From positions 10,564 to 74,563 of the IMG/VR virus record IMGVR_UViG_3300033121_001334: a stretch of 64,000 bases of DNA. One strand, written 5' to 3'. The notes under the pieces were generated by a model that worked only from the letters and a program-made list of their open reading frames with translations, did no database searches and was not told the DNA's origin. The translations under genes and the position numbers were made by a program. Within the stretch, counting starts at the first letter, position 1. Each line of letters opens with the position of its first letter. Positions 1 through 38,025 of the stretch are shown piece by piece. Origin of the DNA: a virus. Taxonomy: Duplodnaviria; Caudoviricetes.

Positions 1-362
1 GACTTGCCAACAATTGATGGGTCAACACTTCCAAACACATGCAAAAGATGAAATCGCTTTCCTGAACGAGTCTTCCGCTTCGCTTTTTCAAGCTTGCGTC
101 CAGCTTCAAAGGCCATATCAATAGCCTTCTTAATGTTCCAGACGGCAATATCATGGAAGTCGAGTCTATCCATGTTGCGAGTCTCAAGCGTCTCAAGATT
201 AAGAAGCTTGCGAATCTCTTCGGAAACGTTGTTCTTCGCAATCAATTCGGGCAGTTCCTTCTTGCCCTGCTCTCGAACCTTGTTGCACTTCACAGCTTCT
301 TCGTCAGAGAGAGGGTGCTGTCGCACAATCCGCTCAAGGCGAGTTGTCTGAAAGTTGGTCAT
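1..362 (-). CDS. Hypothetical protein, DUF6900-like; runs off the left edge; absent from the ORF track
   Basis: ATG at 362 opens MTNFQTTRLE...LETLETRNMDRLDFHDIAVWNIKKAIDMAFEAG with no stop before position 1; preceded by the ACTAAACTT motif at 382-393. Confidence 0.6.
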   Translation of the reverse strand, partial: MTNFQTTRLERIVRQHPLSDEEAVKCNKVREQGKKELPELIAKNNVSEEIRKLLNLETLETRNMDRLDFHDIAVWNIKKAIDMAFEAGRKLEKAKRKTRSGKRFHLLHVFGSVDPSIVGK

Positions 363-427
363 AGCTTTTCGATTTGCGCGAAAAGTTTAGTTCAGAAATC
401 AAAAGAAGGAGTTTTGAAGGGCTTTTT

Positions 428-471
428 GTATTCCTGAAATAGCGGACTAACCGCTTAGATAACAGGAGTAC
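428..471 (+). promoter_or_regulatory. RBS-sequestering hairpin upstream of the HNH gene
   Basis: GTATTCCTG (428-436) pairs with CAGGAGTAC (463-471), which contains the AGGAG RBS; inner hairpin AGCGG/CCGCT. Confidence 0.6.
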
Positions 472-476
472 AGGTA

Positions 477-1235
477 ATGAATCAGTGTAGAAAATGCAAC
501 AATCAAATACCAGCAACCGTTAGAATAAACAATAAGAGACGAAATCTTTGCGGAAGAAAGTTTTGCCTTGAATGCAGTCCTTTTGGTTCTCACAATACAA
601 AACCAGATGATCCTGCAAGAAAATCTGTTTATGGACAGGAAAGATACAAGAAAAATCCTTATTCAAACTGGGCTGAGCATGCAAAAGAGTCTCATAGAAA
701 AAGTACCGTAAACCGAGCAGCAAAACTAAAGCAGAAAATTGTGAATCTGAAAGGCGGTAAATGCTCTTTATGCCAGAACTCAAGCATAGACGTTTTGACT
801 TTTCATCACAGAAATAGAGAAGACAAGTTATTCAATCTTGACAAAAGTTCATTGAGGTCTTACTCGTTAGAAGAAATAGCAAAAGAAATAGAAAAATGCG
901 ATCTTCTGTGTTTTAATTGCCACATGGAAACTGAAGCCAAACACGAAGCAGTAAAAGGCTCAGGAAAGCAGAATGTTAGAGGATGGGAAAGAAAGCAAAA
1001 AGCAATTGAAGAATTGGGAGGCAATTGTTCACAATGTAAATATGACAAATGCATAAGATCTCTGTCTTTCCATCACAGAGATCCATCTACAAAATCTTTC
1101 CCTTTAGATATTAGAGCCTTCAATGGTTATTCTTGGGAAAAACTACAAAACGAAATCAACAAGTGCGATCTGCTTTGTTTGAACTGTCATCGAAGCCTAG
1201 AGAACTCTCTAAGAAAAAGCAGGTATCTGCAATAA
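477..1235 (+). CDS. Free-standing HNH endonuclease with two tandem HNH/Zn modules
   Basis: Two copies of CxxC...FHH...C..LCxNCH; the stop abuts the 3' end of tRNA-Ile2. Confidence 0.85.
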   Translation: MNQCRKCNNQIPATVRINNKRRNLCGRKFCLECSPFGSHNTKPDDPARKSVYGQERYKKNPYSNWAEHAKESHRKSTVNRAAKLKQKIVNLKGGKCSLCQNSSIDVLTFHHRNREDKLFNLDKSSLRSYSLEEIAKEIEKCDLLCFNCHMETEAKHEAVKGSGKQNVRGWERKQKAIEELGGNCSQCKYDKCIRSLSFHHRDPSTKSFPLDIRAFNGYSWEKLQNEINKCDLLCLNCHRSLENSLRKSRYLQ

Positions 1236-1522
1236 TGGGCAAACCGGGATTCGAACCCAGAACCTAGCGATTATGCCTACTGACTTGAGTTTCCCCAAGA
1301 GTCGGACTGTACCTTCACCCGTTTCACTTCCTTACGGAAGAAAAGTTAGGGTGGCTGCCGTCCAGTCTCTACACCTTCGCTTTTCAGCGCTTGGCTCGGG
1401 ATTGGCGTGAGTCTTTCGACCTTTAGCTTTCCCCGACTTTGACAGCTTACTCATACAACATTCCTATTGTATGGACCCAAGTTTTCTTAAGTCGCTTGCT
1501 CTAACCGTTGAGCTATTTGCCC
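1236..1522 (-). tRNA. trnI: tRNA-Ile2 (CAU) interrupted by a group I intron after U33
   Basis: Exon 1 (1490-1522) GGGCAAATAGCTCAACGGTTAGAGCAAGCGACT joined to exon 2 (1236-1275) CATAATCGCTAGGTTCTGGGTTCGAATCCCGGTTTGCCCA gives a full cloverleaf; D and anticodon arms are Ile2-like rather than Met-like. Confidence 0.85.
1276..1489 (-). ncRNA. Group I intron (IC3-like), 214 nt, no ORF
   Basis: P1 GACU|UAAG-AAAA-CUUGGGUC with U.G at the splice site; AAAGUCGGGGAAAGC...GCCAAUCCCGAGCCAAG core; P7 GAGACUG/CAGUC; terminal G. Confidence 0.9.
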
Positions 1523-1554
1523 TATCTTCAATCGTCTACTATCAGTATATCCCC

Positions 1555-1620
1555 TGTTTTTGAACCTGGTATTGACCGCTAACCGACTCACCCAGTCTCT
1601 AACCGCTGAGCTAATCGCCC
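1555..1620 (-). pseudogene. Degenerate tRNA relic (Val-like 5' end)
   Basis: GGGCGATTAGCTCAGCGGTTAGAG is an intact acceptor and D-arm start; the anticodon and T arms do not fold. Confidence 0.5.
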
Positions 1621-1668
1621 GCCAACTCTTTCTCGACTAACGGAAGTTTAGTTCCGCCACATTCCACA

Positions 1669-2595
1669 TTACGCAGCCTTGCAAGAAAGCTTGCGATTTC
1701 GCTCCTTCATCAGTTCCTCAACCTTGCGAACCTCCTTCGAGGAGATTTGCCGCTTCTCAGCGGGCAAGTAAGCGCCGCCGAAGAGCGACTCGCAAACCGA
1801 CCAAAGACGCTCATAGTGGTAGTCGTGACGGTAGTAACGGTAAAGATCGTCCTTCTTGCCGTCAACGATTTGGCCGACGAACTTGTTGCTGCTCAGCGGA
1901 CGCCACTTCCACTCCCACTTCATGGTCTTGTCGTTGAAATCACGAACAGTCTCGCCGAACGACTTCTTCTTCTTCTCTTCAGCCGTCGCCTCGCGGAACT
2001 TGAACTCGTACCAAACCTCGCCGATCTTGTGGTACTGCGTCAGCGGCTTCTTCGGGTCGAAGTAGCTGTCGTTGCTCACGACCGTCTCTCGCCGATAGCG
2101 AGGATTCTTCTTGGTCTTGCGCAGTGTCCCGTCTCGGGGATCGACGTAAAACTCTTCGCGACCATAAGAAGTCGTCATGCTCTCGGGGCCAATGACCCCA
2201 GAAGCCATGACAGTGTTACCTTCCATGTAAGTCTTGGTCTGGACTTCGCCGAACTTAATCAAGTGCTGCCAAACATGAAACTGAATAGCGTTATTCAGGT
2301 TGAGGCCGCTCATGATCTCGCTGTACACCTTGTCCCAAGGCTGACCAATGCGAGAATTCAAGAAACGACGAAGAGGATTGAGGTTCTCGTTCAACCGCTT
2401 CTTGTCGTCGAAGGAGTTGGGCTTCGAGGTGTGAACCCTTTTCATTCCGCGAAAATCAGGAGTGTCCCAATCTTCTTCGAACGGAATGTCTTTGCAAGCC
2501 TGGCGAGTCAAATGACGGTTCTGGCGAATCCGCTCCTTACCGCAGCCGCCAGTTCGGGGGCGCTCAACCAAAACTTTTGCCATGTCTTTACGCAT
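1669..2595 (-). CDS. Hypothetical protein
   Basis: Long ORF with phage-like codon use; start likely at 2595 or 2583. Confidence 0.75.
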   Translation of the reverse strand: MRKDMAKVLVERPRTGGCGKERIRQNRHLTRQACKDIPFEEDWDTPDFRGMKRVHTSKPNSFDDKKRLNENLNPLRRFLNSRIGQPWDKVYSEIMSGLNLNNAIQFHVWQHLIKFGEVQTKTYMEGNTVMASGVIGPESMTTSYGREEFYVDPRDGTLRKTKKNPRYRRETVVSNDSYFDPKKPLTQYHKIGEVWYEFKFREATAEEKKKKSFGETVRDFNDKTMKWEWKWRPLSSNKFVGQIVDGKKDDLYRYYRHDYHYERLWSVCESLFGGAYLPAEKRQISSKEVRKVEELMKERNRKLSCKAA

Positions 2596-2788
2596 TGGTC
2601 CTCTTATTAGAAAATTGAGGCTGTTTGGAAAAGAAACCAAAACTTTTCTTGGTTTTGAATGTTAGATCAACAGAGCAATCGGGCTCGTTAAGATCATTAA
2701 TTACAAAACGCTTGACCTTGCTAACCATCTCCTCGGTTCCAGAGATTTTGATTCTCAAGGTTTTTTGTTTCTTAGTCGCTTCCAACAT
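2588..2788 (-). CDS. Small hypothetical protein
   Basis: ATG about 18 nt downstream of the ACTAAACTT motif at 2806. Confidence 0.55.
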   Translation of the reverse strand: MLEATKKQKTLRIKISGTEEMVSKVKRFVINDLNEPDCSVDLTFKTKKSFGFFSKQPQFSNKRTNA

Positions 2789-2821
2789 GCTTTTCTTTTT
2801 CCGCGAAAGTTTAGTTCCGAA

Positions 2822-2895
2822 TGGGCGACCTGGGACTCGAACCCAGAACCTCTTCTACGTCAAAGAAGCGCGCTGGCCAATTGCGCCAGTCGCCC
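2822..2895 (-). tRNA. trnV: tRNA-Val (GAC)
   Basis: GGGCGAC/GTCGCCC acceptor, CTTCT-TTGACGT-AGAAG anticodon arm, TTCGAGT T-loop; CCA not encoded. Confidence 0.92.
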
Positions 2896-3145
2896 GTTTT
2901 GTATTGTCCCAAGCCTTTCTACTATAAACAACGTTTGTCATGCTTGAAATATCTTCAACAAGAATGGCATGGTCCGTTCTGTCTTTGAATCTATTGCAAA
3001 TCACTTCAGTTATATCATTAACTGCCTTTACTGCCGCAGCATTAGTAAGGCTCAACCCTTTTATTTGTATCTCCAAAACTGGTTCTGGTCTCAATTCTCC
3101 TTGTTCAGGAGAATGATCCGTAATGGTTATTTTGCGGATAGTCAT
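2855..3145 (-). CDS. Hypothetical protein
   Basis: Start MTIRKIT at 3145 follows the motif at 3164; the 3' end overlaps tRNA-Val. Confidence 0.5.
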   Translation of the reverse strand: MTIRKITITDHSPEQGELRPEPVLEIQIKGLSLTNAAAVKAVNDITEVICNRFKDRTDHAILVEDISSMTNVVYSRKAWDNTKRATGAIGQRASLT

Positions 3146-3179
3146 GCTTTTCTTTTTCCGCGAAAAGTTTAGTTCTAAA

Positions 3180-3205
3180 TTGGAGCGACAGGAATCGAAC
3201 CTGTC
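3180..3205 (-). pseudogene. Orphan tRNA 3' fragment (T-arm plus acceptor 3' strand)
   Basis: ACAGG-TTCGATT-CCTGT-CGCTCCA-A directly after the stop of the upstream endonuclease gene; no matching 5' half found. Confidence 0.65.
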
Positions 3206-3755
3206 ATCCTCTGTTTTCTGAAACTGCTTTACAAAAAACAATCAATTCATCATCAGAGTATCTGTTTTTGGCAAGGTTAGCCATAACTGATACAAACTGA
3301 ACATTTCCTTTAACATATCCTAAAGAATTGTCTATTCTATCTAAACTTGCACCATTTATAGGTTGTTTACCAATCCAGCCGTTAGTGTTTTGAGGAAGAA
3401 CAAGATCCCAACCTGTATAAGGACATTTGCCTTTTTGCTTTTCCCATAAAAAACGAATATATTCTAGGTCTATATCAACTTCTTTATTTGTTCTGGTTTT
3501 AGATACACTTCTTGTTTTTAGGACTGTTGAAAACCATCGAAAAGGAGTTAATTCATCTCTTTGATTTCCAGATTCTTTTTTTATGTTTGGATTGCCCTTT
3601 CTTGGATTAGCCTTATTACCAATAAGGCAAGCACAAGATCTAGAGCAACAATGTTTATATCCTCTTTTTTGCGCAAGGTTGTATTGAGAAATTGTTTTAT
3701 GAAACCTTTTTCTACATTCTTGGTTTTCACATTCAACTTCAATCAAGGTCTTCAT
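3204..3755 (-). CDS. Free-standing HNH-type (His-Me finger) endonuclease
   Basis: N-terminal Cys motifs; CPYTG...SLDRIDNSLGYVKGNVQFVSVMANLAKN. Confidence 0.75.
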   Translation of the reverse strand: MKTLIEVECENQECRKRFHKTISQYNLAQKRGYKHCCSRSCACLIGNKANPRKGNPNIKKESGNQRDELTPFRWFSTVLKTRSVSKTRTNKEVDIDLEYIRFLWEKQKGKCPYTGWDLVLPQNTNGWIGKQPINGASLDRIDNSLGYVKGNVQFVSVMANLAKNRYSDDELIVFCKAVSENRG

Positions 3756-3830
3756 GTTTATTCCGGGTTTTTGTGATAAGAGTTTACTAAATAAATAGTC
3801 TTATCGGCTAAACCCGAAAAATTATTCAAT

Positions 3831-3900
3831 CGGCCCTCCCGCGCTTGAATCGGGTTCTAACGATTATCAGTCGTTTGCTCTACCACATGAGCTAAGAGCC
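3831..3900 (-). tRNA. trnI: tRNA-Ile (GAU) with a degenerate T-arm, possibly a pseudogene
   Basis: Good acceptor, D and AACGA-CTGATAA-TCGTT arms; the T-arm CCCGATTCAAGCGCGG is short and mispaired. Confidence 0.65.
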
Positions 3901-3915
3901 GCTTTCTAACAAAAG

Positions 3916-3990
3916 GGTGATCGACGGGACTCGAACCCGCAATCCTCTGGATCACAACCAGATGCTTAAACCAATTAAGCTACGACCACC
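3916..3990 (-). tRNA. trnH: tRNA-His (GUG) with encoded G-1
   Basis: GGTGGTCG...TCTGG-TTGTGAT-CCAGA...CGATCAC-C; C73 and G-1 identity elements present. Confidence 0.93.
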
Positions 3991-4112
3991 ATCAAGCTGC
4001 TAGAACTCCTTGATTTTACAAGTCAAAACTAGCGGGTACTCATTTTTGAGCAGGTTTAGTCGCTACGCTTCTAAACATGCCTTGCAGGTTTAGCTAACCT
4101 GAGTTTTCCAAA

Positions 4113-4141
4113 TAGGCACAGCCGGACTCGAACCGACAAGC
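4113..4141 (-). pseudogene. 3' half of a split tRNA-Val (UAC)
   Basis: GTCGG-TTCGAGT-CCGGC-TGTGCCT-A; TGTGCCT pairs with GGGCGCA of the 5' half at 4848-4854. Confidence 0.7.
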
Positions 4142-4312
4142 TTACTTCTTTTCAAGTTCCTCAATACGTTTTTCAAGAGATTCAACATACTTCATAAGAG
4201 GTTCAAATGCTCTTGAAAGTCGGTTTAATCTGTCTCTTAGATTGCCACCAGAAGGAATCGCATTATCTGTTCTGGTTAGACTATCAATTTCTTTTTTAAT
4301 ATCAGAATTCAT
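4142..4312 (-). CDS. Small coiled-coil hypothetical protein
   Basis: Start MNSDIKK at 4312 with upstream GGAGG; the longer track call overlaps a tRNA. Confidence 0.55.
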   Translation of the reverse strand: MNSDIKKEIDSLTRTDNAIPSGGNLRDRLNRLSRAFEPLMKYVESLEKRIEELEKK

Positions 4313-4323
4313 TTTTCCTCCAA

Positions 4324-4398
4324 TAGGCCCTCGGGGTGACGATCCCCGTACCTCTTCGGTGTAAACGAAGCGCTCTAGCCAGCGTGAGCTAAGGGCCT
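4324..4398 (-). tRNA. trnV: tRNA-Val (UAC) with non-canonical T-loop AUCGUCA
   Basis: AGGCCCT/AGGGCCT acceptor, CTTCG-TTTACAC-CGAAG, CGGGG-ATCGTCA-CCCCG. Confidence 0.85.
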
Positions 4399-4760
4399 GT
4401 ATGTCGCTCCTGGTAGTGGAGCTTAGCATGGCAATTCCTGCAAAGAACCATGCATTTTTCTATCTCTTTCATAATGCGTTCTAGGCTCATGCCTTTACGA
4501 ACCATTATGCTAACTTCAATTTCTTTTTCCTGCGGATCTCTGTGATGAAAGTCAAGACAAGCAATATGTGATTCTCGACAAACTTCACAAGGATGATTTT
4601 TCCTGTAATCGTTTAGAAACTCCCTGTTTCTTTCAATAATCTTTTTGCGCCAGATTTTTGCATCTTTTTTCTTTTGGGCTGCATTTTCTGGATTTTGATA
4701 CCACTTCTTATTGTATTCGCTATGGTAAGCGAGTTTCTTTTCTCTTTCTTTTTGAGGCAT
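4389..4760 (-). CDS. Free-standing HNH endonuclease
   Basis: CEVC...LDFHHRDP...CMVLCRNCHAKLH; start MPQKERE at 4760 behind an AGGAG RBS in the hairpin ATAACAGG/CCTGTTAT. Confidence 0.85.
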   Translation of the reverse strand: MPQKEREKKLAYHSEYNKKWYQNPENAAQKKKDAKIWRKKIIERNREFLNDYRKNHPCEVCRESHIACLDFHHRDPQEKEIEVSIMVRKGMSLERIMKEIEKCMVLCRNCHAKLHYQERHTGP

Positions 4761-4814
4761 AACAGGTTCTCCTGTTATACCTATTCGACTACTTCTTTTA
4801 CACTCCTTCAATTT

Positions 4815-4854
4815 CCGTGTAAAGGTGGCACTCTAGCCATTGAGTTATGCGCCC
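4815..4854 (-). pseudogene. 5' half of a split tRNA-Val (UAC)
   Basis: GGGCGCA-TA-ACTC-AATGGCTA-GAGT-G-CCACC-TTTACAC-GG, then breaks into the HNH upstream region. Confidence 0.75.
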
Positions 4855-4866
4855 AAACCCTGAAGT

Positions 4867-5196
4867 TTAGTTCTGACCTTCCGGCTGAACTTCTTCAGTT
4901 TTCATTTCTTTCTGCTTCTTGATCTCTTCAGATCTTTCCTTGAACCATCGGCCAATATGGCCCTGCATTGCGTAAATGTGACCCTCGTTCTCGCTAAGTT
5001 CGCTTTCCTTGATGAACCTGGTAAGCTCAAGAGCAAGAGCCTTATTCAGGGTAATAGTGATGTTACCCTTCATATGCTCAGGGTTTGCTGCGTCAAAAGG
5101 CTGAAGAATGAACACAGGCTTCTGAAGCGGACGACGATTTCTGACAGTTTTGGGGGAGTCGGACATGGATTTGCTCCAAGTGGTAAAAGTAAACAC
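4867..5196 (-). CDS. Hypothetical protein
   Basis: ORF between tRNA-Trp and the split tRNA-Val. Confidence 0.6.
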   Translation of the reverse strand: MFTFTTWSKSMSDSPKTVRNRRPLQKPVFILQPFDAANPEHMKGNITITLNKALALELTRFIKESELSENEGHIYAMQGHIGRWFKERSEEIKKQKEMKTEEVQPEGQN

Positions 5197-5240
5197 TCAA
5201 AAGATACATCGTACCTTTCTGCTTTCCACAATCAAGTCAA

Positions 5241-5312
5241 CGCGCCGTGGGAGGTTCGAACTCGCTTTTCCCGATTTGGAGGCGGGCGTCTTACCAATAG
5301 ACGAATCGGCGC
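5241..5312 (-). tRNA. trnW: tRNA-Trp (CCA) with several stem mismatches
   Basis: GCGCCGA...CCCGC-CTCCAAA-TCGGG...GCGAG-TTCGAAC-CTCCC-ACGGCGC; one mismatch each in the acceptor, anticodon and T stems. Confidence 0.7.
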
Positions 5313-5334
5313 AGTGTTACAAGCTATTCTGTTG

Positions 5335-5372
5335 TCAAAGAAAAAACCCCTCAAGTTTTTAGAAGGGATTTT
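5335..5372 (-). terminator. Weak intrinsic terminator-like hairpin; likely the distal half of the original attenuator terminator
   Basis: AATCCCTT-CTAAAAACTT-GAGGGGTT followed by TTTTCTTT. Confidence 0.5.
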
Positions 5373-5410
5373 TCCAAAAGCTTTGAAATAACTGATAAAG
5401 GAGTTCAGTT

Positions 5411-5869
5411 ATGTCAAAGTATCAGGAAATGACCCCAGAAGAAATCGAAGAATACAGAAGAAAACGTAGAGAATATTACCAGAATCTAACAAAAGAAGAA
5501 AAAGAAAGAAGAAGAATACAAAGAAGAGAAAGACGTAGAAAAAATGGAAAACCAGAAAAAGAATTAGAAGCTAATAGAAAATGGGCTGCCAAAAACAATA
5601 TCAAGATTCAAAAGCAAGCTCAAGATTTGAAACAAAAATGTGTAGAACTAAAAGGTGGAAAGTGTTTTGCTTGCAATAATTCTTTCCCGTCTTGTGTTTT
5701 TGATTTTCACCATAGAGATGTTAATCAAAAAGAAGAACAATTATCGGTTTTGATCTACAAAGCTCACGGAGAAATGACTCAAGAACTATTATCTGAACTT
5801 CATAAATGTGATCTCCTTTGCTCAAACTGTCATAGAATACATCACCATGTGAAACAAAAAACCCCTTGA
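5411..5869 (+). CDS. Free-standing HNH endonuclease, antisense to the tRNA cluster
   Basis: CFAC...FDFHHRD...CDLLCSNCHRIHH; RBS in the loop of the hairpin ATAACTGA/TCAGTTAT. Confidence 0.85.
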   Translation: MSKYQEMTPEEIEEYRRKRREYYQNLTKEEKERRRIQRRERRRKNGKPEKELEANRKWAAKNNIKIQKQAQDLKQKCVELKGGKCFACNNSFPSCVFDFHHRDVNQKEEQLSVLIYKAHGEMTQELLSELHKCDLLCSNCHRIHHHVKQKTP

Positions 5870-5884
5870 ATAAACTCAAGGGGT
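5852..5884 (-). terminator. Intrinsic terminator of the Ile/Val/His/Trp attenuator
   Basis: ACCCCTTGA-GTTTAT-TCAAGGGGT followed by TTTTGTTT. Confidence 0.8.
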
Positions 5885-5914
5885 TCCGCAGACCTGTGGA
5901 CATACAGCAAGTAG

Positions 5915-5980
5915 TCAACAGTCGCTACCCCTTGAGGTAATGACATGCCAAATCACCTGATGTACAACTATGCTGTTCAT
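5915..5980 (-). CDS. Attenuator leader peptide MNSIVVHQVIWHVITSRGSDC (21 aa); absent from the ORF track
   Basis: GGAG RBS 9 nt before ATG; codons 4-14 are ATA GTT GTA CAT CAG GTG ATT TGG CAT GTC ATT; codons 15-18 contain CTCAAGGGGT, complementary to the terminator 5' strand. Confidence 0.8.
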   Translation of the reverse strand: MNSIVVHQVIWHVITSRGSDC

Positions 5981-6013
5981 TTCAAAAATCTCCGCCCAAC
6001 ATTGGGCTACCCA

Positions 6014-6042
6014 ACTGTATCGGCTTTTTCCGCAAAAGTCAA
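6014..6042 (-). promoter_or_regulatory. Sigma70-like promoter for the Ile/Val/His/Trp leader
   Basis: TTGACT-N17-TACAGT. Confidence 0.7.
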
Positions 6043-6180
6043 CAATCTTTTCACGCTTTCTCTAGTTTCCTAAAATCCTTCATTTTCCGCTTACGGAAAC
6101 TAGGCCATTTTGGGAAACTGCTAAATGCGATTAAGACCCCGATTCTCACCCATAACGATTATGCTTCACAAATTCCTTCT

Positions 6181-6579
6181 TTATTGCGAAACTTTTCCGT
6201 AAATTTCTGCGCTTTCAATCGTGCCTGTTGGAATAGTAATCAAAGATCTAAAACTGGGCTCTTTGTTTCCAGCTTCAAACATTGAGTCAACTCCAATAGT
6301 AACAAATTCTTTTTTTTCGCCTATAAAAGCAACAAAACCGGAAGTGCAAACCTTGCTTGGCCCGTCAGGAACTTCGCCAGGCTTGAGTACAGAATCCGGA
6401 TCGAATACTGCGCCCTTCCAAATAACCTGAACTATATTCCCAATTTCAGCCTTGGCAAAAAACTCTTCAGAGTTCATAAACTTCTCCTTTACTATCATGT
6501 CTATCGACAAGAGAGTATTACAAGGAGAAAATCCAGAATCCTCTTCAGTTCTGACTATTGAATTTACGAATCGCGCCAA
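6181..6579 (-). CDS. Hypothetical protein
   Basis: ORF in tandem with its neighbours. Confidence 0.6.
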   Translation of the reverse strand: MARFVNSIVRTEEDSGFSPCNTLLSIDMIVKEKFMNSEEFFAKAEIGNIVQVIWKGAVFDPDSVLKPGEVPDGPSKVCTSGFVAFIGEKKEFVTIGVDSMFEAGNKEPSFRSLITIPTGTIESAEIYGKVSQ

Positions 6580-6961
6580 TCAGTGTAGCGACTTCGATTT
6601 TCCAAAGCTCAGGAAACCTGACATTCTCTGGCATCCAAACATCAAAATGAACGTCCAGAATAGACTTGATATTTGCTCTACCAGCAGGATTCAAGCTATG
6701 AACAACAACAATCTTACCATGATGCTGCGTCATGTCTTTCAAGTGACGAGCAACAAAACGACCGTCCTCATGATCGTCTTTGGTAACATGATAATGCTCT
6801 TCTTCGAGATCGTGATCCAAATAGATCACATCATACTCGTTCTTTTTCAACAAGTCGATTGCTTCTTGCGCAGTGATAGCAAAGTCAACAACGCAGCCAA
6901 TAGCTTTCTGTTGAAAGACATCTCGCCTGCTCTTCATGTCGTCAAGGAACAAGATCCTCAT
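6545..6961 (-). CDS. Receiver-fold protein resembling the cyclic-phosphate-processing REC family
   Basis: MRILFLDD...AQEAIDLL...YDVIYLDHDL...VVHSLNPAG pattern. Confidence 0.6.
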   Translation of the reverse strand: MRILFLDDMKSRRDVFQQKAIGCVVDFAITAQEAIDLLKKNEYDVIYLDHDLEEEHYHVTKDDHEDGRFVARHLKDMTQHHGKIVVVHSLNPAGRANIKSILDVHFDVWMPENVRFPELWKIEVATLIGAIRKFNSQN

Positions 6962-7102
6962 TGAATGCGGCAGGCGGGCGATAAACCCGCTTGCCCCTTT
7001 AGATTGCGTTTTCAAAATGCAACCAGCGCCTACCAAACGTACAGGGCCTGCCGCACTTCATTATCGACCAACGCCGCCCTGCCTCTCTGCTGTTCAGAAA
7101 GT

Positions 7103-8296
7103 TTAGTTCTCCTCGTCGCCGCCCTCGTCGTCGTCGTTGCGGCGACCTTCGCTGGTCAGCGACCAGCCGCCATTGTCGTCTCGGTCAGCCAGGCCTTGAG
7201 CCTTGTAGTTCGACAGGTTCTTGCTCAGCTTCTCGCGAGTAAGCTCAGGGAATTCGACAAGAAGCCTGTCGTAGATACCGCCAAGGTCCAGCCGAGAATG
7301 AGTTGTGAGAATGTCTTTGACGCTGGGAAACAGTCTCAGCCTCTTGCCTCTTTGGGGCTTGGTCTGCTTTGCGGTCTTGATAGAGGGATGTCCTCCAAGC
7401 TCGGCAACTCGTTGGTCGAGGGCTGCGAACTTCTGAAAAGCAAGTTCAACGGCGATTTGCGCTGCCTTGGCCGCTTTCTTTGCAAGACCATACTCGGCAA
7501 CGGCCTTCATCCGCTCTTCTTCAGCGAGCTTGAGAGAGGCGCTGTCTTTGCCCAAAAGAACGTCAAGGTCGATGAGGTCGTCGTCGTCAAGGTCGATTGG
7601 AAACGAAGGCTGCGGCTTCGCAACCGCAAGAATGGAAGCGGGAATGGCCGGCGCAGTGGGGCGAGAAGGTTGAGCGACGGTTGGAGGTGTCGGCGGAGGT
7701 GTCTGCGGCTTGAATGGCAAGGCTTCGGGGGTAGAAGGAGCCGTCAGAACCTCAAGGAGAGCGTCATGGGCTTCCCCAATAGGCAAGAGCTTGGCGTCGT
7801 CTTGCATGGGAACCTTGTTGATTTTCCCAATCGCTCTCATGCCGTCGCCGTGGTCCCTCCACTTGTTGGCGAGATTGAAGTTCTGCGTCCAACGCCTTTC
7901 TTGCCCGGCCCAAACGGCTTTCATCTTCGCGCTGAAGATGACAAACTCGCCAGAGGGAGCGCCAGTCGGGACAATGCTCGTTGGGATAGACAGTCTCTCT
8001 CCGAGCGGCTTCCGAAAATCAACAGCAGACGGCATATTCATTACCTCCGTGATGTCAAAGTCGCAACCGCTCTTCCAAAGATAGATATTGGAGAGCTTTT
8101 CTTCTTCGTCATGTCCGTGCTTGAAGGGCCGAACGATGGCCCTTCCATTGCCCAAGACCTTCTTGAGAATGCCCCTATTGGGCTTCCCCCTTATGTCTTT
8201 GTTGATGAGCTTGATATTGCAGATTCGCCCGCTCTGTTGAGCAAGCTCAAGGAGCTTGAGGGCTTGAGCTTCTGAAATTCCTTGACGGCTTTCCAT
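7103..8296 (-). CDS. Hypothetical multidomain protein with a Pro-rich linker and possible C-terminal winged helix
   Basis: 397-aa ORF; ATG about 20 nt after the motif at 8316. Confidence 0.75.
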   Translation of the reverse strand: MESRQGISEAQALKLLELAQQSGRICNIKLINKDIRGKPNRGILKKVLGNGRAIVRPFKHGHDEEEKLSNIYLWKSGCDFDITEVMNMPSAVDFRKPLGERLSIPTSIVPTGAPSGEFVIFSAKMKAVWAGQERRWTQNFNLANKWRDHGDGMRAIGKINKVPMQDDAKLLPIGEAHDALLEVLTAPSTPEALPFKPQTPPPTPPTVAQPSRPTAPAIPASILAVAKPQPSFPIDLDDDDLIDLDVLLGKDSASLKLAEEERMKAVAEYGLAKKAAKAAQIAVELAFQKFAALDQRVAELGGHPSIKTAKQTKPQRGKRLRLFPSVKDILTTHSRLDLGGIYDRLLVEFPELTREKLSKNLSNYKAQGLADRDDNGGWSLTSEGRRNDDDEGGDEEN

Positions 8297-8349
8297 AGTC
8301 TAGAAGTCTAGGCCGAAAGTTTAGTCTTGGGCTTTCTCCGAGTGCAAAA

Positions 8350-8402
8350 TGGCCCCGATGGGATTCGAACCCCTACGCCTTTTTACGGGCTACGGATTTT
8401 TC
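8350..8402 (-). pseudogene. Orphan 3' half of a class II tRNA-Leu
   Basis: AAAA-TCCGTA-GCCCGTAAAAAGGCGT-AGGGG-TTCGAAT-CCCAT-CGGGGCC-A, overlapped by the HNH stop codon. Confidence 0.7.
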
Positions 8403-8827
8403 ACATTTCTTCCTCTCCAAGTTGGAGTCAATGCGTGGCAGTTGCAACACAAAAGTTCTAGATTTTCTTTTCGGTTATCAGTTCTATCACCATTTTTGTG
8501 TTCAATTTCTAAAGGAGCGATCTCTCCTTGCCATTCTGTTATTTTACACTTTTCACATTGATGACCTCGTTCCGAAATCAAATGTGGTTTTAAAGAAGAA
8601 AGCTTATTGTATTCTGACCAGTCTTTTAATCTTTTCCCAACGTTCCAAGCACTACCAGTCCAATGAGAACAATCCAGATTTAGCCTCTGGAGTGTTTTTC
8701 TCATATTGTTGTAGTTGCCACCTGCAACTCTGAGATCAAGGGCCTTCAAAAGCTCTGCCATCGAGTTGACTTCTTTACACTTTTGAATAATTTGTTCATC
8801 GGTGTAGCTTCTGTATTTTCTTGCCAT
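8390..8827 (-). CDS. Free-standing HNH endonuclease
   Basis: CEKC...LEIEHKNGDRTDNRKENLELLCCNCHA; start MARKYRS at 8827 behind GGAGG in the hairpin TAATCCATCT/AGGTGGATTA. Confidence 0.9.
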   Translation of the reverse strand: MARKYRSYTDEQIIQKCKEVNSMAELLKALDLRVAGGNYNNMRKTLQRLNLDCSHWTGSAWNVGKRLKDWSEYNKLSSLKPHLISERGHQCEKCKITEWQGEIAPLEIEHKNGDRTDNRKENLELLCCNCHALTPTWRGRNVKNP

Positions 8828-8893
8828 AATCCACCTCCATAGATGGATTACAATTGGCAATCGAATTATCCTTCTTCGTCTACCAATTCCTAA

Positions 8894-9212
8894 TGGACTG
8901 ACCGGGACTTGAACCCGGATGGTGTTTGAATACCTGCGGATTTTCTTACCACTTCAGCTTTCGCCGACTGCCCTTTTCCATCAAGGTACTTGGGGTCTTA
9001 CGTTTGTGGTCTGGACTGTACCTTCATCCGTTCTGCTTCTTACGAAGAGTTTTGGATGACCCAATTGCAGTCTCTACGGCTTCCTTTGTAGGTTTGCCTC
9101 GGAATTGGGATTTTACACCGTTTCCCGATACTCTGGGTTTCATTTACAAGATTACTCTTGTAACGCTCAAATTGTCTAAGTCCGCTGCGTCTGCCAATTT
9201 CGCCATCAGTCC
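8894..9212 (-). tRNA. trnL: tRNA-Leu (UAA), class II, interrupted by a group I intron after U34
   Basis: Exon 1 (9178-9212) GGACTGATGGCGAAATTGGCAGACGCAGCGGACTT plus exon 2 (8894-8944) AAAATCCGCAGG...GGTTCAAGTCCCGGTCAGTCCA. Confidence 0.9.
8945..9177 (-). ncRNA. Group I intron, 233 nt, no ORF
   Basis: P1 CUU|AGA-CAA-UUUGAG with U.G at the splice site; GUAGAGACUG and GAAGGUACAGUCC form P7; terminal G; same position as the cyanobacterial/plastid trnL(UAA) intron. Confidence 0.9.
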
Positions 9213-9219
9213 AATTATT

Positions 9220-9420
9220 CTATTCTTTGCGCGAATAATTTTGCACAGACAATTTATCTATTTGTTCTTGTTGAGATTTAATAATACTTAAGATTTTCAA
9301 AAAATCTCCAGCCATAACAAAAAAAGTATTATCTCCCTTAATAGGAAATTTTCCTCCTTTACCAGCTTTATCCATTCTTTCTTTAACGTTTTGAATAAGT
9401 TCCTCAATCTCGTTCTTCAT
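9220..9420 (-). CDS. Small hypothetical protein
   Basis: AAGGA RBS; lies between tRNAs. Confidence 0.6.
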   Translation of the reverse strand: MKNEIEELIQNVKERMDKAGKGGKFPIKGDNTFFVMAGDFLKILSIIKSQQEQIDKLSVQNYSRKE

Positions 9421-9430
9421 ATTTGTCCTT

Positions 9431-9826
9431 TCAAAAAGTCCGATGCGTCTGCCGTTCCGCCACAGGGCCGATAATCTGAGAAACAGTCATTTTGCGAACA
9501 GGTAAAATGTTGTGGTCCAAGAAGTGATTGAGGCAATCTTCCACTTCGTCCAAGAAGCTATCGCAGGCGGCAATTCTGTTAGAGGGAAGATCTTCTCTCA
9601 TTTCAAGAATCGTTCTGTAAATCGAAATCAAGTCAATAACTTTGCATTCGATTTTAGATTCTCGCGCAAAAGTAAAAGCGTCCGAAATGAGATCCAAATC
9701 GGGCTTTCTTGCGGATTTCAATGATTGAAATGCAGAAAGAGCTTTTTCTTTGCGAAGCTCGTTCTGGTTTGGAGAGTGAATATCTACTTTAATAGAACGA
9801 AAATCAAGAGTATCAAGCATCGTCAT
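9431..9826 (-). CDS. Hypothetical protein
   Basis: 131-aa ORF starting just after a tRNA 3' end. Confidence 0.6.
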   Translation of the reverse strand: MTMLDTLDFRSIKVDIHSPNQNELRKEKALSAFQSLKSARKPDLDLISDAFTFARESKIECKVIDLISIYRTILEMREDLPSNRIAACDSFLDEVEDCLNHFLDHNILPVRKMTVSQIIGPVAERQTHRTF

Positions 9827-9828
9827 AA

Positions 9829-9902
9829 TAGCTCCAGAGAGATTCGAACTCTCAACCTTACCGCCTTAAACGGTTTGCCTCTGCCGATTGAGCTATGGAG
9901 CC
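9829..9902 (-). tRNA. trnL: tRNA with Leu anticodon UAA and a short variable loop
   Basis: GGCTCCA/TGGAGCT acceptor, ACCG-TTTAAGG-CGGT, GAGAG-TTCGAAT-CTCTC, A73. Confidence 0.75.
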
Positions 9903-9918
9903 AAAGTTTAGTTCTAAA

Positions 9919-9992
9919 TGCTCTTGAGTGGATTCGAACCACTAACAACTAGATTCTGAGTCTAGCGCCTCTGCCGGTTGGGCTACAAGAGC
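9919..9992 (-). tRNA. trnL: tRNA with Leu anticodon CAG and a short variable loop
   Basis: GCTCTTG/CAAGAGC, CTAGA-CTCAGAA-TCTAG, 5-nt variable loop, A73. Confidence 0.88.
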
Positions 9993-10005
9993 GAATTTTA
10001 CTAAA

Positions 10006-10079
10006 TGCCCAGGACTGGATTCGAACCAGCACTGTATTGATTTTGAGTCAATCGCCTCCTGCCGTTGGGCTACCTGGGC
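10006..10079 (-). tRNA. trnL: tRNA with Leu anticodon CAA and a short variable loop
   Basis: GCCCAGG/CCTGGGC, ATTGA-CTCAAAA-TCAAT, 5-nt variable loop, A73. Confidence 0.88.
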
Positions 10080-10100
10080 TTTATTGAAGTATTTCCATAA

Positions 10101-10183
10101 TGCCCCTGAGAGGATTCGAACCTCCACGTCCTTTCGGACACGAGATCCTAAGTCTCGTGCATCTGCCGTTTCGCCACAGGGGC
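10101..10183 (-). tRNA. trnL: tRNA-Leu (UAG), class II
   Basis: GCCCCTG/CAGGGGC, CGAGA-CTTAGGA-TCTCG, GTCC-GAAA-GGAC variable arm. Confidence 0.93.
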
Positions 10184-10192
10184 CTATTTTAT

Positions 10193-10405
10193 TTAGGCCA
10201 TTTTACACGGACTTGTAAAATTCCAGACAGCTTTGATGTCTTCTTCAATCGGAAACTCATGCGATCTATTTCCGTCAACAATAACCTCTTTTACTGATTC
10301 AGTAACGCAAATTGCAGAAACTAATTTTTGAAGCTCGCTCAGAACATCGACCTGAAAATTGTAAGTGTCCTCAGTGGTTATAACAACGATTCTTTTTGTA
10401 CTCAT
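10193..10405 (-). CDS. Small hypothetical protein
   Basis: Start MSTKRIV at 10405 with AAGGA RBS; the longer track call overlaps a tRNA. Confidence 0.55.
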   Translation of the reverse strand: MSTKRIVVITTEDTYNFQVDVLSELQKLVSAICVTESVKEVIVDGNRSHEFPIEEDIKAVWNFTSPCKMA

Positions 10406-10424
10406 TATGATCCTTTCTTTTAAA

Positions 10425-10508
10425 TGGCCTTGACAGGACTCGAACCTGCACTCTCTTGCGAGAACCACCACCTCAAGGTGGCGCGTCTGCCAATTCCGCC
10501 ACAAGGCC
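10425..10508 (-). tRNA. trnL: tRNA-Leu (GAG), class II; first gene of the Leu cluster
   Basis: GGCCTTG/CAAGGCC, CCACC-TTGAGGT-GGTGG, long variable arm. Confidence 0.94.
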
Positions 10509-10517
10509 TTATGTACC

Positions 10518-10551
10518 AAAAGAAAAACCCCATCTTTTTAGGGATGGGGTT
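10518..10551 (-). terminator. Intrinsic terminator of the Leu attenuator
   Basis: AACCCCATC-CCTAAAAA-GATGGGGTT followed by TTTCTTTT, about 10 nt before tRNA-Leu(GAG). Confidence 0.85.
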
Positions 10552-10582
10552 CGTGTGCATCTACGCAACGACTTCCATCCCT

Positions 10583-10633
10583 TTATTCAAGGAGTAGGAG
10601 GCCGCATAACAAGCTGTTGAAGTTAGTATTCAT
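10583..10633 (-). CDS. Attenuator leader peptide MNTNFNSLLCGLLLLE (16 aa); absent from the ORF track
   Basis: Leu codons TTG TTA ... CTC CTA CTC CTT; the stop is immediately followed by AGGGATGG, complementary to CCATCCCT in the terminator. Confidence 0.85.
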   Translation of the reverse strand: MNTNFNSLLCGLLLLE

Positions 10634-10639
10634 GGTTGA

Positions 10640-10667
10640 ACTATATACCTTTTCGGCTAGAAGTCAA
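10640..10667 (-). promoter_or_regulatory. Sigma70-like promoter, probably giving a leaderless transcript
   Basis: TTGACT-N16-TATAGT; the leader ATG is 7 nt downstream of the -10 box. Confidence 0.7.
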
Positions 10668-10952
10668 AAAATCCTTCAACGAACACGAAAGAATTTTGTG
10701 AGTTTTCACCGATTGAGCTTTTTTGGTTTCCGGAAAATTACAAGGAATCTCAATCCCGCAATAAGGACAAAATATCTGTCCAAGCGTTTTTTCTCCGCAA
10801 ACAAGACAATCACTTGATCTTGTAATAGCGGATCGCTTCTTCCAAATCCAACGCCTCAAGCTCGCCCAGAGAAATAAAAACACAACCCCGCTGCTTATAG
10901 ATAAGAGGATTATGCCAGTGTCCATGTACGAGTATCCTAGGCATATGAGCAT
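10641..10952 (-). CDS. Small membrane protein with a Zn-ribbon
   Basis: Hydrophobic N-terminus; CLVC...CPYC; partly overlaps the upstream phosphoesterase ORF. Confidence 0.45.
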   Translation of the reverse strand: MLICLGYSYMDTGIILLSISSGVVFLFLWASLRRWIWKKRSAITRSSDCLVCGEKTLGQIFCPYCGIEIPCNFPETKKAQSVKTHKILSCSLKDFLTSSRKGI

Positions 10953-11469
10953 GAATCATCGAATCAAGCAAGAAAGCTGTGGAGTTACCCTTTGGTTCGC
11001 CCCAGCCCTCATTGTTGCGGTCATAAGTACAAGAAGCAGCCTTGGCAATCTGATGAAGCCTAAACGGAGCTTCATGACAAATCAGAATATCAGGCTTGTT
11101 GTTGATGTAGTCATCAAGAGCAAGCTCCATAGCCTCCCGATTAAGTTGCTCGTCAGGCCACCAATCAACTCCCTCTTTTCTCCACTTCTTATCAACAGAA
11201 TCAGCGCCAGCAACAATGTACAGCCCATTCCACATGCCATACTCAACGGCATACTGCGGATGCGCTCTGCAAATGGCTGGATTGTCATGATTTCCGCGAA
11301 AGAAACGAAAGTTCGCAGGCAGCTTTGGTTCTCGACCAGGAAAGCCAATACCAACGTCGCCAAGACCAAGAACAGTCTTGTTCGCGTACTTATCGCAGAC
11401 GTTCTTGAGCATGGACCATTTCCCATGAACGTCGCCAACAATCACAATATCATTCAGGCTTGGATTCAT
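10810..11469 (-). CDS. Calcineurin-like metallophosphoesterase
   Basis: GDVHG, GDVG, GNHD and HGHWH motifs. Confidence 0.9.
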   Translation of the reverse strand: MNPSLNDIVIVGDVHGKWSMLKNVCDKYANKTVLGLGDVGIGFPGREPKLPANFRFFRGNHDNPAICRAHPQYAVEYGMWNGLYIVAGADSVDKKWRKEGVDWWPDEQLNREAMELALDDYINNKPDILICHEAPFRLHQIAKAASCTYDRNNEGWGEPKGNSTAFLLDSMIHAHMPRILVHGHWHNPLIYKQRGCVFISLGELEALDLEEAIRYYKIK

Positions 11470-12979
11470 CTCTCAAAACTTTCTGGAACTGATACAGCGC
11501 CGCTCCTTCTAAACACTGCTTTGCAAGACCAAACAAAACGCTCAATCTGTCAAGCGTTAGTCCGGCTCTCTTTGCAATACCGCCCAGAAGAAGCTCTCGC
11601 TGTTTTTCGTCCAAAAGCTGAGAGGTGGTGTCAATCGCCACCAAAATGCGCAAGAATCCAACAAGCTCGTCTTCTTCCAACGGAGGGTCAATCTCTTCGT
11701 CATTGCCCAAAAAATCGGTCAGCTTCACAAGCTCGCAATCCTGATAAGGGTTTGCGATGTAGTTAGCGACCTCTTCCGTGAAAGAAGTATCAACGCCAAT
11801 GAAGCCGCCGTCCACCTTATGAATATCAAGATGAATAACCTGACCCGGATTATCAGGGTCAGCTACCTCGATAGTCTTGATGTACTGGCTAATCTTCATG
11901 ATTCGTCTTCTGTTCCGCCGTCGCCAAAGATTCGCTCTCGAACCCTGTCATGGATAGCATAGTCAACCTCAAAGAAGGCGTCAACTTGCCGTCCCATTTC
12001 AAGAGCTTTTTCGATTTCATTTGCGCCGCTATTGGAAAGCACAATCTTCTTGCCGGTAATCCTTTCAAGGGAAGCGATAACCCGCTTCATACCTTCGACA
12101 GGATCAACATTGGCAATCGTCCTGAACGACGGAGCCAGGTCCGCAAATGATGTTGCGTAAACTTGATTGAACGCAAGGTTTTCTCGGTATTCCGTCAGCG
12201 CCCAAGAGTTCGGCGTTGCGGAAACACCATAACGATAGCTCAAGGTCTCGCCCTTGCTGCGAGGCCCTTCAGACTTGCGAGTTTTCCAGTCGTCCGAAAG
12301 GTGACAAAGCACCTTTTCGTTCTCGGCTTGCTTCGGTAAATCAACTTTCATATGCTACATATAGTAGCAGAAAGTTTAGTCTTGGCAAACCAAACTGTGG
12401 TTTCTCAAAGAACTAGACACACTCCAACGACGAGAGTTTCTCGTTCATGTCTACCTGAACGCCTCTGTCTTCAAGAAACTGAACAAGGTCGTATAACTCT
12501 TTGTACGAGTCATGACCTAAAGATTCATTCATAAATAAAAGACCAGACCAAACAGCTTTGCCGCTACGAGGAACCTTGATCTCTTTTCCGTCGAGACAGA
12601 TAGTTGACGGATAAGTTGTGAAGCCAAAGTACACAAAAGCGCCGTTGCTAAGTTCAACCGCAAATACAGCAATACTTTGCGGATTCACAATCACAATCTT
12701 GTCATTGTGAAGCATAATCCCTTGAGACAAAAGCTTTGCGTCAAGCAAGGGATCTTCTGAACCCTCAACCAGGCACTCTTCTCCATAAAAGCGATGAATG
12801 GGGCCTACCCTAATCGCCTTATCCTGTGCTTGTTGTCGCAGGGCAACAAGATGAGCATACATCTCCTTCTTGTCGCAAACAAGCTCAAAATGAAGAGCGC
12901 CAGAATCAGTCTGATGATTCTTGAGTCGCTCGGTTTCCATAAACAATTCCCCTGAACGAACTGGACTGATTGTTGTCAT
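11450..12979 (-). other. Three hypothetical CDS (11450-11899, 11896-12351, 12413-12979)
   Basis: Tandem ORFs with overlapping start/stop codons; no family recognised. Confidence 0.7.
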
Positions 12980-36686: not shown

Positions 36687-37958
36687 TTACCCTTTCAAGA
36701 CAGCAACAGGCAGAAGTTCGATTTGGATATCAACCAAGTCCTTTTGGTTGTTCATAACAACGTCAATGCTTTTATATGCGCTTCCAAGTTCGTCATGAGC
36801 TTCTTGAACTCCATAAAGCTCAACAGAACCAAGCTGCGAAGCCTGCGAAGGGTCAAGCCCGTCAGCAATACGCTTCTTAGCGGTTGTTCTACTGAAGTTT
36901 CGACCCGCACCATGCGAACAAGAGTTGAAGCTGTCTGGGTTTTCCTTACCCTTTACAATGTAGCTCTTGCTGCACATCGAACCAGGAATAATTCCAACAG
37001 TCGTCTTGCGAGCGAGCGTTGCTCCTTTGCGATGAACCCATACATTCTCACCATGATGATGTTCAATCGTTGCGTAGTTATGGTGAATGTTGATAATGTC
37101 CTTGAGAGCAGCCGTCTGGTGATATTGCTCTCTAACAGCTTCCTGACAACATATCATCATGAGTTTTCTGTTTACAAGAGCGTAATCTTGCGCAGCCAAA
37201 AGGCTTGCAATGTACCATTGTCCTTCGTCAGAATCAGCGGGCAAGAATGCTAGTTCTTCATTAGGAAGGCGAGTGTAGTATCTCTTGCAGGTCTTGACGG
37301 CAAGGTGATGGAACTTCTTGGCAAGCTGAGCGCCAAAGCCTCTGGAACCGCTATGAAGCATGAACCAGGCGTTGCCTTCTGCGTCTTGCTGAAGCTCAAT
37401 GAAGTGGTTTCCGCCACCAAGAGTTCCTATTTGTATTTTTGCTCTGCACCATGCAGGATAATCAAGAGTCTTACAGAATTCTTTTGCTTCCTCAACCTTT
37501 TTCTCGACATCAGCAATATGGTCAATAATACGCTTATGACCAAGCCAGAGATCGCTTCTAGAGCGGTTTTTACCTTCGCCAACAGGGACATCAGCGGCAA
37601 TGGCTGTCATGAGCTTCTTGATATCAAGGTCTGCGACTTTGATACCTGAATTCCATGCACACATTCCGCACCCGATATCCACCCCGACCGCATTTGGTGA
37701 AACGGCATTATGAAGCGGCAGGACGCAGCCGACTGGGACTCCAAAACCTGTATGAGCGTCGGGCATGAGCGCAACATGGCGATAGACGCAAGGAAGGCGA
37801 GCAGCTTCGCTGACTTGACGAATTGCGCCTTCTTCTAGGTTGAGGATGGGCTTGCCGGTTTCTGAATCGACATCCTTCGTCCAGCACTTGACAGGAACGC
37901 CGCCAGTTTGCTCGGGCGGGATTACGACGGGTCCGAGTTTTTCTTCAATGGTTGACAT
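36687..37958 (-). CDS. rtcB: RtcB RNA 3'-phosphate/5'-OH ligase
   Basis: MPDAHTG, VGVDIGCG, GTLGGGNHFIE, HSGSRG, NIHHNYA, HRKGAT, SCSHGAGR, AYKSI; start at 37958, 7 nt after TATAAT. Confidence 0.96.
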   Translation of the reverse strand: MSTIEEKLGPVVIPPEQTGGVPVKCWTKDVDSETGKPILNLEEGAIRQVSEAARLPCVYRHVALMPDAHTGFGVPVGCVLPLHNAVSPNAVGVDIGCGMCAWNSGIKVADLDIKKLMTAIAADVPVGEGKNRSRSDLWLGHKRIIDHIADVEKKVEEAKEFCKTLDYPAWCRAKIQIGTLGGGNHFIELQQDAEGNAWFMLHSGSRGFGAQLAKKFHHLAVKTCKRYYTRLPNEELAFLPADSDEGQWYIASLLAAQDYALVNRKLMMICCQEAVREQYHQTAALKDIINIHHNYATIEHHHGENVWVHRKGATLARKTTVGIIPGSMCSKSYIVKGKENPDSFNSCSHGAGRNFSRTTAKKRIADGLDPSQASQLGSVELYGVQEAHDELGSAYKSIDVVMNNQKDLVDIQIELLPVAVLKG

Positions 37959-38025
37959 GATGTGATTATAGGATAAAAAATGGCACAAAATCAAACGTGT
38001 CTAAAGTGTTTTCATTCAAAACTTG

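Follow-up and report, generated by a model that had tools for sequence, protein, structure and literature searches.

The purpose and use of phage tRNAs have been debated for fifty years, and recent work has shown that a single phage tRNA can overcome tRNA-cleaving defences. The locus described here covers positions 1236 to 10667 of a 64,000-nt stretch of Caudoviricetes DNA (IMG/VR record IMGVR_UViG_3300033121_001334, positions 10,564 to 74,563), hereafter called the window, which is part of a 74.6-kb virus contig; the phage has a size of about 500 kb and was found in wastewater metagenomes. ARAGORN predicted ten tRNAs in this range, every one on the minus strand, and allowing introns added two intron-bearing tRNAs. 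An earlier note on this DNA had described two separate cassettes sharing a promoter, leader, antiterminator, terminator and tRNA layout. All of these elements were recovered on the minus strand at the places proposed. Taken together with their conservation and with the correspondence between leaders and tRNAs, these features make it probable that two ribosome-mediated (leader-peptide) transcription attenuators gate phage tRNA genes.

Structure of the two cassettes

Cassettes A and B, both on the minus strand, have the same layout: a sigma70-like promoter, a short open reading frame (ORF), alternative hairpins, a strong intrinsic terminator and tRNAs. Promoter A (10640-10667) bears a -35 box TTGACT (10667-10662) and a -10 box TATAGT (10645-10640) separated by a 16-nt spacer, with 10/12 consensus matches; both hexamers and their spacing are unchanged in the related genomes L001 and L002. 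The leader A ORF (10583-10633) has 16 codons plus a stop, six of which are Leu codons of five kinds (TTG, TTA, CTC twice, CTA and CTT). No Shine-Dalgarno sequence precedes it. Since its ATG sits 6 nt past the -10 box (6-7 nt in all lineages), the leader A mRNA is probably leaderless.

Segment 1 of attenuator A (10589-10598) consists of the last Leu codons and pairs with segment 2 in the terminated form, which is the minimum free energy (MFE) structure of the full leader. Segment 2 (10575-10582), the 8-nt antiterminator strand AGGGAUGG, lies directly 3' of the stop codon and pairs with segment 3 (10547-10540) once the terminator 3' arm is removed, the duplex having a predicted energy of -23.4 kcal/mol. 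Segment 3 in turn overlaps the 5' arm and loop of intrinsic terminator A (10515-10552), which has a 10-bp stem (10552-10525), an 8-nt loop, a U tract and a dG of -12.7. The first gene of the tRNA-Leu block (9828-10508), tRNA-Leu(GAG), begins 16 nt beyond this stem. The block contains anticodons GAG (10508-10425), TAG (10183-10101), CAA (10079-10006), CAG (9992-9919) and TAA (9903-9828), as called by ARAGORN and supported by Rfam scores of 50-63 bits, with an ORF of about 70 codons inserted behind the first tRNA. Further downstream, the ARAGORN intron search placed a tRNA-Leu(UAA) with a 233-nt intron at 8893-9213.

Promoter B (6014-6042) is also sigma70-like, with a -35 box TTGACT, 17 nt and a -10 box TACAGT. 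The leader B ORF (5915-5980) has 21 codons plus a stop and is preceded by GGAG at 5993-5990, 9 nt 5' of the ATG. A small hairpin (5994-6007, minus strand) lies just before this GGAG in the 5' untranslated region and is found, with differing sequence, in three of the four lineages (including L024 and L038). Segment 2 of attenuator B (5927-5936), the antiterminator strand, comprises 10 nt within codons 15-18 and is perfectly complementary to 5884-5875. Intrinsic terminator B (5852-5887) has a 12-13-bp stem (5887-5858), a U tract and a dG of -15.1. Block B (2822-5313) encodes tRNA-Trp (5313-5240), tRNA-Val(TAC) (4398-4324), tRNA-His (3989-3915), tRNA-Ile(GAT) (3901-3830) and tRNA-Val(GAC) (2895-2822), with HNH/endonuclease genes interspersed among them. 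The tRNAs are taken to be the target of attenuator B because tRNA-Trp begins 10-40 nt past the terminator in the relatives, as it does in one wastewater variant.

The earlier note had also stated that the leader codons match the tRNAs downstream, which our counts bear out. Leu occupies 6/15 codons of leader A, and codons 4-14 of leader B are Ile, Val, His or Trp in 10/11 positions, the remaining one being Gln. Measured against the amino-acid usage of the phage itself, this cognate enrichment has binomial P values of 1e-3 (A) and 5e-4 (B).

Alternative folding of the leaders

As predicted in silico, the full leaders fold as 1:2 plus 3:4 (z ~ -3), and in every lineage the MFE structure contains a 1:2 helix in which the Leu codons (A) or codons 7-15 (B) pair with segment 2. 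Leaders deprived of the terminator 3' arm fold as 2:3. Complementarity between the upstream RNA and the terminator 5' arm was equalled by 0/1000 shuffles for A and 2/1000 for B, and it exceeded at least 95% of shuffles in 10/11 sequences. The terminators have stems of 10-14 bp, dG values from -12.7 to -20.5 and U tracts.

The effect of a ribosome was modelled by masking its footprint. For leader A, the terminator probability fell from 0.98 to 0.05-0.13 when codons 8-13 occupied the A site and was back at about 0.9 with the ribosome at the leader's end. In the nascent transcript of leader B, the terminator 5' arm was sequestered with the ribosome on codons 1-11 and freed when the ribosome reached segment 2. 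The antiterminator, which overlaps the terminator 5' arm in its pairing, is in these models masked by a ribosome standing at the end of the leader.

Conservation and covariation in related phages

Relatives of the window were traced via the phosphoesterase gene upstream of cassette A and a small gene upstream of cassette B. The close relatives are contigs of 494-506 kb, each with about 70 tRNAs. Both cassettes are present again in three further lineages, namely G002 (L001/L024), at about 86% protein identity, G001 (L002, identical here to L003 and L037) and L038. The tRNA order, from the Leu block through Trp/Val/His/Ile/Val to tRNA(CAU), is retained in all relatives; within block B, the order Trp, Val, His, Ile, Val is the same in L002, L037 and L038, where some tRNAs are doubled. 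In L002, seven tRNA-Leu genes stand in a row, the first 25 nt past the terminator, with gaps of 6-17 nt save for 272 nt before the last.

Other searches with parts of the region were negative. Megablast of the region against INPHARED gave no match, and a 131-aa neighbour protein had no relatives in IMG/VR. A 17-nt promoter pattern hit nine loci in IMG/VR, none of them with tRNAs, which were judged to be chance matches. The degenerate leader-B pattern found no match in bacterial genomes and therefore gave no clue to a host or prophage. Phage sequence was present as contigs in four wastewater RNA libraries, where DNA carry-over is possible.

The earlier note had made its proposal depend on conservation of the leader ORFs, and this was observed. 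Leader length is fixed across lineages, the alternative helices 1:2, 2:3 and 3:4 exist, and the 2:3 pairing covaries with 3:4. Leader B has 21 codons in all four lineages, with codons 7-15 identical at the nucleotide level; the protein adjoining it is only 49% identical between lineages. Promoter B is likewise kept in four lineages, whereas the 5' untranslated region behind it ranges from 19 to 41 nt. In attenuator B, a change in segment 2 is matched by one in segment 3 across three haplotypes (window, L002 and L038): a U-A pair in one of L002 and L038 is replaced by C-G in the other, and the window has a matched one-base insertion on both strands. The covarying leader B codon switches amino acid (Ser, Phe, Ser), which argues for a constraint on the RNA rather than on the peptide. 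Leader A of L002 encodes a different 15-codon peptide with 7 Leu, and its segments 2, 3 and 4, although of entirely different sequence, still form all three helices.

Leader-to-tRNA correspondence in other huge phages

The 494-kb relative has about 45 tRNA-upstream gaps, and only the Leu and Ile/Val/His/Trp cassettes combine a cognate-rich short ORF with a terminator. Two huge phages, LR756501.1 and LR756511.1, share only tRNA-level similarity with the window, yet they show the same design with other specificities. LR756501.1 has a Leu leader with all six Leu codons before five tRNA-Leu; a Met/Gln/Ile leader before tRNA(CAU), Gln and Gln, with more tRNA(CAU) and Ile(UAU) further on; a Ser/Lys/His/Phe/Trp leader before Trp, His, His, Phe, Lys and Ser tRNAs; and a Thr/Gly/Ala/Pro/Val/Arg leader before Arg, Thr, Val, Ala, Gly and Pro tRNAs. 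Each of these four leaders has a 7-10-nt strand complementary to the terminator 5' arm and displayed the same ribosome-dependent switch in folding. The Ile/Cys/Asp/Asn/Tyr and Glu tRNA clusters of LR756501.1 have no such leader. LR756511.1 carries a Ser/Leu/Tyr leader, with all six Ser codons, before four tRNA-Ser, five tRNA-Leu and two tRNA-Tyr; no clear antiterminator was found in it. Another candidate in LR756511.1 (L055), a 35-codon ORF before a 23-tRNA array that contains nearly all of the array's amino acids, was not counted; its stop lies 24 nt before segment 1.

The correlation between leader codons and anticodons that the earlier note had set as a test was examined with seven leaders from three huge-phage lineages, each phage's own amino-acid usage serving as background. 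All seven over-represent the amino acids carried by the tRNAs downstream of them, with P values between 5e-3 and 6e-6. Of the 5040 possible permutations, none outscored the true assignment of leaders to tRNA sets; its score was reached by 2/5040 because two of the tRNA sets are both Leu. A cell-wise test of leader against tRNA gave an odds ratio of 23 (P 1.6e-8). Synonymous codons are mixed within the leaders, and in the other phages a leader may contain all six codons for Leu or for Ser. The idea that they sample each isoacceptor was not retained, as the use of many synonyms was significant in some leaders only and is a trend.

Comparison with known attenuation systems

The enterobacterial attenuators (leuL, ilvL/ivbL, hisL, trpL, thrL and pheL) have the same promoter, ORF of regulatory codons, mutually exclusive 1:2, 2:3 and 3:4 helices and terminator, as well as the same blocking of the antiterminator by a ribosome at the leader's end. 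Their multivalent members (ilv, thr) mix several amino acids, like cassette B. They differ in that the phage element would regulate tRNAs instead of biosynthetic enzymes, in that leader A seems leaderless, and in that no sequence homology is apparent. A cmscan of window positions 1-12000 against Rfam, with E up to 1, returned tRNAs, one group I intron and two sub-threshold chance hits, and no match to a leader family (Leu, His, Trp or Thr) or to the T-box. The attenuation logic of trp, his, leu, ilv and pheST, which the earlier note had invoked, held in every part that can be tested computationally.

In E. coli pheM-pheST, leader-peptide attenuation controls the synthetase that serves the sensed amino acid, a feedback on charging capacity. 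The phage cassettes would resemble this system in acting on the translation machinery; they differ in that their targets would be phage tRNA genes and not a cellular synthetase. An attenuator of the E. coli tRNA-Phe genes was not supported, since pheV and pheU have plain promoters and no leader. T-box riboswitches recognise uncharged tRNA by direct contact, with neither a ribosome nor an ORF involved. Like the proposed phage switch, they let the state of a specific tRNA decide between terminator and antiterminator upstream of translation-related genes; unlike T-boxes, the phage elements have their codons in a conserved ORF, and no T-box match was found.

Leader-peptide attenuation is a known mechanism, and our sequence analysis supports its predicted application to tRNA genes. 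The earlier note knew of no described case of attenuation controlling tRNA genes in a phage, and none turned up in our literature search: the full texts consulted, including the huge-phage paper PMC7162821, contain no account of attenuation of tRNA genes in phage or cell. Full-text searches that returned PMC10264068, PMC11555353 and PMC11464382 found no sensor, attenuator or leader that switches on phage tRNA genes. These three papers concern phage-encoded tRNAs as replacing host tRNAs destroyed by nucleases, a counter-defence against tRNA-targeting immunity. The present phage resembles those cases in also having RtcB and other RNA-repair-type genes, so its tRNAs may have a comparable link to defence.

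Proposed mechanism and alternative explanations

From the observed anatomy, conservation, covariation and leader/tRNA correlation we infer translation of the leaders, its kinetic coupling to transcription, the response and its natural trigger, as follows. Host RNA polymerase would start at the sigma70-like promoter, and a ribosome would translate the short leader. With cognate charged tRNAs in ample supply, the ribosome would reach the leader's end and cover segment 2, the 3:4 hairpin would form, and transcription would halt 10-40 nt short of the first tRNA. Slow decoding of the Leu codons (A) or of the Ile/Val/His/Trp codons (B) would instead stall the ribosome within segment 1; segment 2 would then sequester the terminator 5' arm, and polymerase would read into the tRNA block. 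If the leader were not translated at all, 1:2 and 3:4 would form and transcription would stop. What is sensed and what is produced would be the same tRNA, so that the circuit would act as a negative-feedback supply controller for each tRNA block.

Several observations weigh against this interpretation. The switch is known here from sequence and in-silico folding. At equilibrium folding, the terminator of leader B is favoured at every ribosome position, and B would therefore need kinetic control, as trp does; equilibrium folding was accordingly discarded as a switch model for B, as only the truncated, kinetic-type model shows a switch. The leaderless start of leader A is deduced from promoter spacing, and the Shine-Dalgarno sequence of leader B is only modest. 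In the window genome, a 513-nt HNH cassette and a second hairpin are interposed between attenuator B and the tRNAs, which may compromise the coupling between the two here. The attenuator elements of the earlier note stand, while the missing Shine-Dalgarno sequence of leader A and the HNH cassette before tRNA-Trp amend its account. Recurrent motifs also occur between the attenuators and the tRNAs, TTTGACAA-GAATAG behind terminator B and ACTAAACTTT abutting the 5' end of tRNA-Leu(UAA), and these could be extra promoters that bypass the switch. In the 494-kb relative, a leader is present in only 2 of the approximately 45 gaps preceding tRNAs; its other tRNAs, about 55, have none, and the earlier statement that the sorting of the tRNAs matches their leaders is valid for no cassettes beyond these two. 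Two more distant phages that share the phosphoesterase gene, L004 and L006, lack the leader, their tRNAs having plain promoters or no cognate leader. Finally, the sensor would be unable to distinguish tRNA loss from amino-acid starvation.

On this last point, we think it more likely that in nature the attenuators respond to host tRNAs losing their function during infection, because an extra tRNA cannot relieve the lack of an amino acid, because the leaders follow tRNA sets and not biosynthetic logic, and because genes for a cREC protein, a metallophosphoesterase and RtcB lie nearby. The main alternative keeps the same attenuator hardware and takes host amino-acid starvation as the signal, the tRNA block belonging to a starvation programme. 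A stalled ribosome reflects the level of charged tRNA, and starvation must hence open the switch too, as in the known trp, his, leu and ilv attenuators, and Leu, Ile, Val, His and Trp are the classical amino acids of attenuation. Its output would nevertheless be mismatched to its input, the leaders of LR756501.1 and LR756511.1 extend to Lys, Ser, Gln, Arg, Gly, Pro and Tyr in step with the tRNA sets, and the RNA-repair genes of the neighbourhood also speak against it. We regard starvation as an improbable primary signal.

Considerably less probable is a general translation-status or timing device, in which the terminator insulates the tRNA blocks from host polymerase and read-through is set by general ribosome availability or infection stage and not by specific codons. 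Such a device would fit the formation of the 1:2 and 3:4 helices without translation, and the abundance of ACTAAACTTT (21 copies in the window against 0.27 expected) suggests a second mode of transcription, which may act on the tRNAs at a later stage. It leaves unexplained why each of seven leaders matches its own tRNA block and why the regulatory codons stay fixed while other leader positions vary. That ordinary terminators happen to lie next to chance short ORFs, or that the hairpins process the tRNA precursor with no switch involved, is very hard to credit: counts of simple promoter and terminator patterns in the region are not above shuffles and the Ser/Leu/Tyr leader of LR756511.1 lacks a clear antiterminator, but four lineages with diverging flanks preserve the ORF length and the regulatory codons, segments 2 and 3 covary, and the permutation, binomial and 2:3 complementarity shuffle tests argue against chance.

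If ribosome-mediated attenuation is indeed at work, phages regulate their tRNA supply on demand, reading the decoding speed of chosen codons and making those tRNAs, and leader-peptide attenuation extends from metabolic operons to tRNA genes. The role of phage tRNAs would also become open to direct tests, as the shortage that the phage expects can be read from the leader. A more far-reaching proposal, which we put forward tentatively and would give somewhat less than even weight, is that huge phages carry modular, re-programmable ribosome-read sensors, one per tRNA block, that form a virus-encoded tRNA homeostat and counter-defence alarm. Host tRNAs might be destroyed by anticodon nucleases or in the course of the host shut-off that the phage itself imposes; their loss would turn the replacement tRNAs on, and restored supply would turn them off. 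Being short, portable and apparently re-programmable by codon choice, the leaders are candidate parts for synthetic tRNA- or codon-specific sensors.

Mobile insertions, recurrent motifs and neighbouring genes

The mobile HNH cassette of 513 nt (5361-5873) lies in the loop of terminator B and carries an HNH ORF at 5411-5869 on the plus strand, with PHROG HNH matches. It separates attenuator B from tRNA-Trp in the window genome, and the relatives are without the insert. A wastewater DNA run, X2, joins 5360 directly to 5874; this insert-free form folds to an intact 14-bp terminator, with tRNA-Trp 38 nt further on. In the window, terminator B takes its 3' arm and U tract, as replacements, from the cassette, where they overlap the C-terminal codons of the HNH ORF. 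The original 3' arm and U tract (5341-5355, minus strand), stranded by the insertion, form the second hairpin with the cassette end (-14.8 kcal/mol). HNH cassettes at 5361-5873, 4140-4814 and 394-1596 are variably present among wastewater strains, where contigs join across them.

The lower limit that the earlier note had set for the region, 1236, coincides with the end of an intron-bearing tRNA (1236-1522, minus strand). ARAGORN called it Leu(UAA), and Rfam placed a group I intron at 1283-1498 (about 214 nt, 61 bits). A splice model ending in G yields a 73-nt tRNA(CAU), which might decode the ATA codon of the leader. Just upstream lies a broken tRNA 5' half (1585-1625).

The motif TTTGACAA-GAATAG was found at 5323-5338 in the window, 9413-9430 in L002, about 5985-6003 in L038 and about 9475-9495 (minus strand) in genome C1. 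It recurs before other tRNA or noncoding RNA genes and is too near the tRNA 5' end for a sigma70 -35 box. Of the copies of the 10-mer ACTAAACTTT in the window, 20 are on the coding strand; minus-strand sites include 2806-2815, 3164-3173, 7098-7107, 8316-8325 and 9903-9912. The 10-mer usually lies 15-30 nt 5' of a start codon, often containing the stop of the previous gene, and is probably a phage-specific promoter or start-site motif.

Genes of RNA-repair type surround the tRNA blocks on the minus strand, encoding a protein with a cyclic-phosphate-processing receiver (cREC) domain (6545-7036), a calcineurin-like metallophosphoesterase (10810-11469) and an RtcB ligase (36687-37994). Amber-suppressor tRNAs (anticodon CUA; called 'Pyl' by ARAGORN) were observed in the relatives and in both of the other huge phages, the sites being G001 206506-206579, LR756501.1 690585-690737 and L050. 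The contig of the window also has an odd tRNA with a four-base anticodon call (genome C1, 8776-8846).

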